A stretch of 391 nucleotides of DNA from Escherichia coli (lineage in GTDB: Bacteria > Pseudomonadota > Gammaproteobacteria > Enterobacterales > Enterobacteriaceae): the NCBI RefSeq assembly GCF_003334255.1, contig NZ_QOWU01000249.1; one strand, 5' to 3'. A model generated the notes under the pieces. It had not been told where the DNA came from and did no database searches. It was given only the letters and a program-made list of their open reading frames with translations. Positions 58 to 391 of the stretch are shown here, in pieces. Made by a program: the position numbers and the translations under genes. Every line of letters begins with the position of its first letter. Within the stretch, counting starts at the first letter, position 1.

Positions 58-290
58 TTGCCTCCGGAGCAGTTTGCAGTGATGCCTTTCCCGGGAATGG
101 ATTGCCAGTGCGGGGACTGTGGAGCTTAATTCCGGTGTTGGTGGCCTTTCCGTTGATTTTATGCCAACAGCCCCCTGTGACTGACAGGCTGCCTCGTCAT
201 TCCATTCGTATCTCCAGTAACAGGGGGTTGTATTGTATTTTATTGTGCCGGTTCAGATGTGCGTTTCCCGGCGCGTCTGCACCGGCTTAA
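54..290 (+). CDS. hypothetical small protein (78 aa), doubtful; possibly a small hydrophobic peptide, or a spurious ORF over noncoding structured DNA
   Basis: ATG 54-56 to TAA 288-290. For: AGAGG at 44-48 with 5-nt spacer acts as a plausible SD; the ATG overlaps the TAA (52-54) of upstream frame 1 as TAATG; residues 22-37 (LWSLIPVLVAFPLILC) are hydrophobic. Against: 5 of 7 Arg codons are AGG/AGA/CGG; product is Cys/Pro/Arg/Leu-rich with no recognisable motif; the ORF spans hairpins, a palindrome and direct repeats. Confidence 0.25.
   Translation: MVASGAVCSDAFPGNGLPVRGLWSLIPVLVAFPLILCQQPPVTDRLPRHSIRISSNRGLYCILLCRFRCAFPGASAPA
78..96. repeat. copy 1 of imperfect direct repeat (CAGTGATGCCTTTCCCGGG), core GCCTTTCCCGG at 84-94
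   Basis: Matches 254-272 at 14 of 19 positions by manual alignment; the core matches 261-271 at 10 of 11. A shorter third copy lies at 143-152. Confidence 0.5.
88..97. repeat. 10-bp perfect palindrome TTCCCGGGAA; candidate dimeric protein-binding site, function unknown
   Basis: Reverse complement of 88-97 is identical to itself. It sits inside copy 1 of the direct repeat. At roughly 1 in 1024 per position, chance occurrence in 391 bp is not negligible. Confidence 0.4.
143..152. repeat. copy 2 (short) of direct repeat core: GGCCTTTCCG
   Basis: GCCTTTCC at 144-151 is identical to 84-91; spacing from copy 1 is 60 bp. Confidence 0.4.
167..231 (+). other. nested stem-loop: 12-bp outer stem (167-178 / 220-231, CCCCC/GGGGG core) enclosing an inner hairpin (182-188 / 192-199, loop CTG, one bulged C195); candidate structured RNA element
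   Basis: ACAGCCCCCTGT (167-178) pairs with ACAGGGGGTTGT (220-231). As DNA the match is 11 of 12; as + strand RNA the mismatch becomes a G170-U228 wobble, whereas the minus strand would have a C-A mismatch, so the structure is slightly more stable if the + strand is transcribed. Confidence 0.45.
226..247. repeat. T-rich tandem pentamer array GGTTG-TATTG-TATTT-TATTG-TG immediately 3' of the nested stem-loop
   Basis: TATTG 231-235, TATTT 236-240, TATTG 241-245, preceded by GGTTG 226-230. This is the most AT-rich stretch of the window. Confidence 0.45.
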
Positions 291-337
291 CCAAATTCAA
301 CAGGGATAAAATAGTGGTAAGCGTACAGCCTGAACCG
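249..337. repeat. 8-bp perfect inverted repeat CGGTTCAG (249-256) / CTGAACCG (330-337) bracketing 73 bp
   Basis: Exact reverse complements. The pairing does not extend (C248/T338 and A257/C329 mismatch). Could be a long-range RNA pairing or chance. Confidence 0.3.
254..272. repeat. copy 3 of imperfect direct repeat (CAGATGTGCGTTTCCCGGC), core GCGTTTCCCGG at 261-271
   Basis: See copy 1. Start-to-start spacing between copy 1 and copy 3 is 176 bp. Confidence 0.5.
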
Positions 338-341
338 TCTG

Positions 342-354
342 GTCAGAATCTGAC
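342..354 (+). other. small hairpin GTCAG-AAT-CTGAC (5-bp stem, 3-nt loop)
   Basis: G342-C354, T343-A353, C344-G352, A345-T351, G346-C350. Short and of uncertain significance. Confidence 0.25.
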
Positions 355-391
355 GAATTAGACAAAGTGGTGTCCACCAAATAAGTAGTGG

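Follow-up and report, generated by a model that had tools for sequence, protein, structure and literature searches.

A GC-rich stem-loop beside an IS66-family element in Escherichia coli as a probable by-product of decay at a genomic-island edge

The short spacer that separates a zinc-ribbon gene from an insertion sequence in many Escherichia coli chromosomes holds a GC-rich stem-loop and a T-rich repeat array, and the question raised by this locus is whether these features form a selected RNA element or are incidental properties of relic DNA. A sequence-only reading had proposed a branched RNA element, or an atypical intrinsic terminator or attenuator, acting on the + strand and embedded in a putative ORF. 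Here, the locus is analysed through one 391-nt stretch of E. coli DNA, referred to as the window throughout; positions are those of the window unless a locus is named.

Genomic setting and anatomy of the stem-loop

Many E. coli chromosomes match the window at 100% identity, including ATCC 11775 (4156003–4156393) and S88, the same allele being carried by O26:H11 11368, and at least 80% of its length is present in 1,932 of 5,426 complete genomes. Its first 54 positions (+ strand) encode the 3' end of the zinc-ribbon domain protein WP_001221615.1, as indicated by translation and by the RefSeq annotation of ATCC 11775 and S88, and the stop codon of this gene (TAA, 52–54) closes a + strand row composed of inovirus-Gp2 family, zinc-ribbon and zinc-ribbon genes. 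Positions 55–316 are unannotated in RefSeq in both strains. The right-hand part of the window (317–391, + strand) is the left end (GTAAGCG...) of an IS66-family, ISEc8-like element, identified from phage and plasmid matches and from the downstream genes tnpA, tnpB and tnpC; matches in the phage and plasmid collections are confined to 316/317–391 and are annotated as ISEc8 or IS66. Copies of the remaining sequence number a median of one and at most four to five per genome and correspond to sister islands, so a mobile repeat of the REP or MITE type was rejected.

Immediately left of the insertion lies the remnant of a gene of the PF27752 (UCP030791) family, represented on the + strand by a Shine-Dalgarno sequence (AGGGA, 302–306) and a GTG start codon (314–316), which were assigned from the sister alignment, the PGAP start in locus L003 and the protein family. 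Because the GTG aligns with the PF27752 start, the IS66 element begins directly after the start codon, the only codon of the gene that survives in the window. The element spans 6317–8615 of locus L001 and its right end was found, and the 8-bp target-site duplication is absent (AAATAGTG on the left, TTTTGTTC on the right); what else there was of the PF27752 gene was therefore lost in a rearrangement, which suggests an IS-associated deletion.

The 12-bp stem described by the earlier reading is real, with the exception that its 3' arm had been placed one base off. The 5' arm ACAGCCCCCUGU (167–178, + strand), delimited by RNA folding and allele comparison, pairs with the 3' arm ACAGGGGGUUGU (220–231, + strand), all or part of which is missing from some natural alleles. 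The segment A167–U178 pairs with A220–U231, with a core of C171–C175 and G223–G227 and a single wobble, G170–U228. The second hairpin said to be enclosed by this stem exists as just a 4-bp helix, ACUG 180–183 with CAGU 215–218 (interior 180–218, + strand; fold and RNAalifold), and the loop around it is C-rich and G-poor, the C/G ratio peaking at 1.86 over 144–221. A local alternative pairing, UGAC 178–181 with GUCA 196–199, is conserved in sister loci, where it corresponds to helix 3 of the RNAalifold prediction.

The T-rich tract (228–246, + strand), defined by Tandem Repeats Finder (TRF) and by variant alignments, consists of 3.8 copies of TTGTA. The repeats are genuine, with a TRF period of 5 and a score of 31, below the default threshold of 50; their supposed position directly after the stem is not, as the T-rich string UUGUAUUGUAUUUUAUUG occupies 228–245 and thus takes in the final four bases of that arm. 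Within the tract, TATTTTAT (236–243) is perfectly complementary to ATAAAATA (306–313), which lies between the Shine-Dalgarno sequence and the GTG, and this complementarity occurs only in window-type sequence.

The + strand RNA of 160–255 folds to −29.8 kcal/mol (z = −2.34; matched by 2 of 200 shuffles) and the − strand yields z = −0.8, so that the wobble is + strand specific, as had been proposed. The hairpin itself (167–231, 41 nt between the arms) folds to −26.9 kcal/mol. Among 500 dinucleotide shuffles of the 391-nt window, 22% have a gap-free stem of 12 bp or more closing a loop of 3–60 nt, and among 150 shuffles, 16% have a 65-nt segment whose fold is at least as stable as −26.9 kcal/mol; stem length and hairpin stability are within chance at the scale of the whole window. 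The entire spacer (55–316) is more stable than its shuffles (z = −2.74; 0 of 200).

Natural alleles and sister islands

Fourteen window-type alleles were sampled, five of them IS66-bearing (the window, L023–L025 and L038). The perfect stem, with a C-run of 5 nt (C5), is present in all five IS66-bearing alleles and in none of the nine others; in the latter, the C-run of the 5' arm is uniformly 6 nt (CCCCCC, as in strain FREC5, or CCCTCC, as in M-17), producing a one-base bulge. The T-rich tail lacks 6 nt in L014 and L040, and its proximal part is replaced by GAGGGG in L005. A larger deletion of 12 nt, the form carried by strains EC0885, SZQ1 and O103 WL1467, removes both TTGTA copies and the greater part of the G-run from L015, L041 and L042, and the zinc-ribbon gene upstream is intact in L041 and L042 despite this loss. 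Predicted stability among these allele folds ranges from −13 to −36 kcal/mol, and the bulged stem is kept in several alleles without IS66 (L013, L014 and L005). A search for compensatory changes in the long stem found none among window-type alleles, whose differences are uncompensated indels and whose divergence is too low for a rigorous selection test. The PF27752 gene is also dead in window-type alleles that lack IS66, where the GTG is followed directly by TAA or stop codons occur later.

Recombination appears to have touched the upstream boundary in one of these alleles: within 1–3000 of L015, an annotated BREX pglX CDS shares its stop codon and at least its last 15 nt with the window zinc-ribbon CDS, which suggests a chimeric 3' end made by recombination.

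Two of the sampled loci carry deletion endpoints at window 210/211 (L016, about 3000) and 218/219 (L026, about 1664). These represent two independent deletions ending within 8 nt of each other, inside a small hairpin described below that may be a deletion hot spot. Such clustering might indicate a DNA-level site, that is, an inverted repeat used for recombination or protein binding, and we consider this very improbable. On its left side, L016 carries DNA of unrelated sequence; the event in L026 turned out to be the simple loss of about 270 nt of internal sequence extending into the PF27752 gene, on which ground a site-specific recombination site was rejected. Two events are all that supports such a site, no direct repeat of it occurs at another junction, and the neutral reading of the hairpin is in keeping with the clustering, palindromes being well-known hot spots for deletion.

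A sensitive search with 55–316 recovered, in addition to the near-identical group, about 600 genomes with copies at ~76% identity. The diverged copies belong to sister islands in the genomes of E. coli, Salmonella and E. albertii, in which a fixed gene order prevails: a YagK/YfjJ (Gp2-like) gene, a ~190-aa gene, an alpA-family HTH gene (PF05930), a ~265-nt spacer and a PF27752 (UCP030791) gene of 166–196 aa, often followed by a zinc-ribbon gene or a convergent ProQ/FinO-domain gene. Window 88–316 aligns to the spacer between alpA and PF27752 at ~76% identity. The sister arrangement can be described as a leader module made up of the alpA-like gene, a zinc-ribbon micro-ORF, a structured leader of ~170 nt and the PF27752 gene, and 55–316 is a degenerate, decaying copy of it. 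At the window locus, the genes upstream are of the zinc-ribbon type and no alpA lies directly upstream. A family search of the neighbouring proteins, the product of ORF 54–290 and the micro-ORF peptide against NCBIfam and PHROGs matched only the alpA-like protein, to excisionase and regulator families. An exact-pattern scan for the conserved leader core, covering one genome per species, returned a single Enterobacteriaceae metagenome-assembled genome, of the same type as one of the sampled loci. Outside Escherichia and its close relatives the leader element is essentially absent, and the diversity available for comparison is accordingly limited.

Several features of the sister islands deserve record in their own right. 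The ProQ/FinO-domain gene lies convergent to PF27752, ~20 nt downstream, in many islands (− strand; L018–L021 3056–3535, L030 2068–2547, L004 4675–5179 and L022 1998–2126). In L027–L029 (1–1500), the distance from alpA to PF27752 is ~1.4 kb instead of ~265 nt; the extra DNA carries minus-strand ORFs (a plus-strand one in L029), the leader includes a ~70-nt extra segment just after CTGACTG, and the interval may be a cargo insertion site. In E. coli MS8345, a fragment 91% identical to window 181–236 is flanked by grpP and the RT gene of a group II intron (L037, 2501–2556); standing alone in unrelated chromosomal surroundings, it is a further remnant of this leader.

Comparison with the sister leaders bears directly on the claim of a conserved element. 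In an alignment of 17 sequences, 11 of them from sister loci, the core positions of the long stem (columns 43/96 and 45/95) do not pair in 11 of 17, namely in every sister sequence, with slid controls reaching 50–54% of cells paired. Alignment of the 5' arm to sister loci is ambiguous, placing it either on the first sister hairpin or on the flank beside a ~18-nt deletion, and the C/G core is preserved in neither alternative. Together with the natural alleles that delete the G-run and repeats beside an intact upstream gene, this argues against conservation of the long stem.

Other helices of the leader are shared more widely. RNAalifold on ten sister leaders recovered a first hairpin, GCUGAC/GUCAGC, which shows one compensatory change and is lost in the window, and the UGAC/GUCA mini-helix equivalent to window 178–181/196–199. 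The small local hairpin AUCUCC-AGUAACA-GGGGGU (210–228, + strand; −4.8 kcal/mol), delimited by the terminator-like scan, folding energy and pair counts, uses the same G-run as the long stem and so competes with it. The inner four base pairs of this hairpin (212–215 with 223–226), which RNAalifold also predicts in the sister leaders, closing the 7-nt loop 216–222, are kept in all three sequence lineages, and it is paired in 16–17 of the 17 sequences, spanning the window type and both sister leader classes. Changes occur on both sides of the helix (columns 83/97, CG:11 UA:5; columns 84/96, GU:6 GC:5 UG:5), giving a covariation score of 0.447 against 0.261 ± 0.03 in shuffles and at most 0.315 in slid controls, over about three independent lineages. 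The G-run thus has an ancestral local partner, with the long stem as a lineage-specific competitor for it.

A second shared structure, the stable hairpin GCCGGU...ACCGGC (247–286, + strand; −27 kcal/mol), supported by energy, RNAalifold and pair counts (helices 5 and 6), is the best-conserved leader block in every lineage, mostly through sequence conservation and G–U changes. It lies ~15 nt upstream of the PF27752 Shine-Dalgarno sequence, corresponds to about 2434–2475 of L007 and falls outside the feature originally described except for base 247. For the sister leader as a whole, covariation scores 0.203, compared with 0.177 in shuffles (a value reached by 2 of 500 is 0.203) and at most 0.08 in slid controls, again with about three independent lineages.

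Coding content of the spacer

The ORF at 54–290, within which the stem-loop lies, would on a protein-coding reading specify a small hydrophobic protein, making the hairpin merely coding sequence; we regard this as extremely improbable. Its ATG overlaps the upstream TAA (TAATG), its predicted product contains the hydrophobic stretch GLWSLIPVLVAFPLIL, and PGAP calls a 79-aa ORF on the homologous region of one sister locus, L003. Against these points, the ORF reaches 78 aa only in the C5 allele and is 43 aa in all other alleles, and it is unannotated in RefSeq. Two frame changes separate the window from the 79-aa ORF of L003, that ORF is not annotated in L004, and the stored gene calls of the other sister loci include no full-length ORF in the spacer, the only call being one of 52 aa in L022. 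Indels of 1, 4, 5, 10 and 16 nt, none a multiple of three, separate the sister spacers, and the predicted product has no family match in NCBIfam or PHROGs. ORF 54–290 is not a gene. The suspicion that it is not a normal CDS is thereby upheld, but the reason given for it, termination of transcription, is not.

Codon-position evidence in the 5' part of the spacer also favours another frame. The first ~100 nt of sister spacers contain an unannotated micro-ORF of 29–37 aa, MKRVVMPVRWQCAKCRRWYCGNQPCPWCW (for example, L003 3843–3956, L007 2230–2343 and L012 2241–2330), whose ATG overlaps the stop codon of the alpA-like gene (ATGA). The encoded peptide has two CxxC pairs in a CxxC...CxxC arrangement of the zinc-ribbon type and no PHROG match. 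Across nine distinct sequences, third codon positions hold 9 of the variable sites, second positions 5 and first positions 2, and three of the four Cys codons change synonymously; this skew to the third position and the synonymous Cys changes make it very likely that the sister micro-ORF is a real micro-protein gene. In the window, alignments, six-frame translation and micro-ORF analysis detect a degenerate remnant at 58–156 (+ strand, frame 1), broken by an in-frame TAA at 127–129.

Termination, antitermination and decay as explanations

Intrinsic terminators have a GC-rich stem of ~5–14 bp, a loop of ~3–8 nt and an uninterrupted U-tract directly 3' of the stem. The stem of the window is consistent with this description, being GC-rich, 12 bp long and built around five consecutive C–G pairs. 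The loop is not short, with 41 nt between the arms, and the compact alternative at 210–228 has only the low stability noted above; both tails, AUUGUAUUUUAUUGU and UUGUAUUGUAUUUUA, are interrupted, with T-scores of 1.9–2.9. The d'Aubenton-Carafa scores (d-scores) are correspondingly poor: −42 for 167–231, −30 for 171–227, −51 for 210–228 and −20 for the 247–286 hairpin. A consensus scan of the window found one terminator-like site against 0.5 expected in shuffles. Rfam returned no match at E ≤ 0.1 and no gathering-level score in the window, the best hit (E = 0.19) being to an unstructured lncRNA model, and no match at E ≤ 1 in the sister leader. The claim of a conserved branched RNA element, terminator or attenuator thus finds no backing in Rfam or in the d-scores of −30 to −51. 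Nor does the T-rich tract read as a promoter, since the window scan gave zero sigma-70-like sites.

The main rival to a neutral reading is a leaky factor-independent terminator, or a 3'-end-stabilizing hairpin, serving the Gp2/zinc-ribbon/zinc-ribbon operon. The C5/G5-cored stem with UUGUAUUGUAUUUUA would then release some transcripts ~180 nt after the stop codon, and the C-rich, G-poor segment 144–221, with its peak in C/G ratio, might also load Rho. Position and strand agree with this reading: the stem-loop starts 113 nt 3' of the last stop codon in the + strand gene row, its fold is + strand specific, and hairpin 210–228 with the T-rich tail is the sole + strand terminator-like match within L001 4900–6450. 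The bulged stem is, moreover, kept in several alleles. Compared with E. coli Rho-independent terminators, the window has in common a GC-cored sense-strand stem and a U-rich stretch downstream of the last gene in a row; unlike them, it encloses 41 nt rather than a 3–8 nt loop, carries an interrupted UUGUAUUGUAUUUUA tail and has negative d-scores. It also differs in its natural deletion alleles, L041 and L042 having lost the G-run and repeats with the upstream gene intact, and these, the complete lack of compensatory changes and a scan result close to the shuffled expectation weigh against a terminator. As the hairpin is the only one with a U-rich tract downstream of the zinc-ribbon operon, we judge a weak terminator role possible but doubtful.

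A lineage-specific regulatory leader of the PF27752 gene, in which the choice of pairing partner by the G-run would control read-through into the gene, can also be envisaged and is, on our analysis, improbable. Under such a scheme, translation of the micro-ORF or an AlpA-type antiterminator would select between the long stem and the local hairpin. The precedent is Pseudomonas aeruginosa, in which AlpA bypasses the terminator tB upstream of alpB (PMC7969949), an antitermination mechanism that has been described. Sister islands resemble the AlpA/tB leader (PMC7969949, PMC9371919) in having a PF05930 alpA-family gene directly upstream of the homologous structured leader. Further in favour, the leader contains conserved helices, some changed on both sides, with the above excess of covariation over shuffles; the small hairpin 212–215/223–226 is kept in three lineages; and the G-run has two mutually exclusive partners. 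In contrast to the AlpA/tB system, scans for sigma-70 promoter-like sites gave none in the window or upstream of the leader hairpins in sister locus L007 (leader at 2234–2503), inspection of the leader sequences showed no copy of the P. aeruginosa AlpA-binding motif GGGACGN5GGTA, and no convincing terminator emerged, a convincing U-tract being absent after every helix in the sister leaders. The window locus lacks alpA directly upstream, its downstream gene is dead, and the covariation rests on about three independent lineages only.

Leader-peptide attenuators of the trp and his type offer a second comparison. Likeness lies in the sister small ORF, whose end falls within or close to the first hairpin of the leader, and in the two alternative partners of the window G-run. 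Unlike these attenuators, the leader has no regulatory codon runs and no U-tract terminator, and the micro-ORF, which the window has only in broken form, specifies a conserved peptide of the zinc-ribbon type rather than a sensor peptide.

The category that best fits the evidence is relic intergenic DNA at an island edge next to an IS. The locus shares with such DNA a dead flanking gene, the absence of a target duplication, internal deletions, and indels at homopolymer and tandem-repeat sites, with no material difference. We consider it probable that the hairpin, as an inverted repeat prone to slippage and not under selection, belongs to a decaying non-coding leader at the island edge, and we infer no selected function for it. 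The local fold (z = −2.34), the fold of the whole spacer 55–316 (z = −2.74) and the retention of the bulged stem count against this neutral reading. Relic DNA, free variation among strains and poor terminator scores nevertheless make the finding most likely an ordinary one.

The history would have run as follows. A ~18-nt deletion in the window lineage alone may have brought a C-rich stretch near the G-run, creating the long stem and recruiting as its partner a G-run that in every lineage forms the 3' half of the small local hairpin. A later one-base loss from the C-run, confined to the IS66-bearing allele, would have perfected the stem and accidentally extended the ORF from 43 to 78 codons. 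Read-through from the zinc-ribbon operon would yield an RNA that folds into the stem-loop, any pausing or termination being incidental and weak.

An undescribed regulatory cassette of E. coli and Salmonella islands, in which alpA-like gene, zinc-ribbon micro-ORF, structured leader and PF27752 gene act together and the leader RNA with an AlpA-type antiterminator gates read-through into the cargo side of the island, is a distinctly improbable extension of these observations. If it were true, the hairpin and U-rich tract of the window would be one lineage's gate, orphaned by gene decay and IS66.

As a functional element, the stem-loop is probably unimportant, a by-product of island-edge decay, and the 78-codon ORF is best taken as an accident of one lost base; for annotation, neither a gene nor an RNA element should be called at the 55–316 feature. 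Its neighbours may merit attention, namely the zinc-ribbon micro-ORF coupled to alpA-like genes and the leader hairpins that precede PF27752 in the sister islands.
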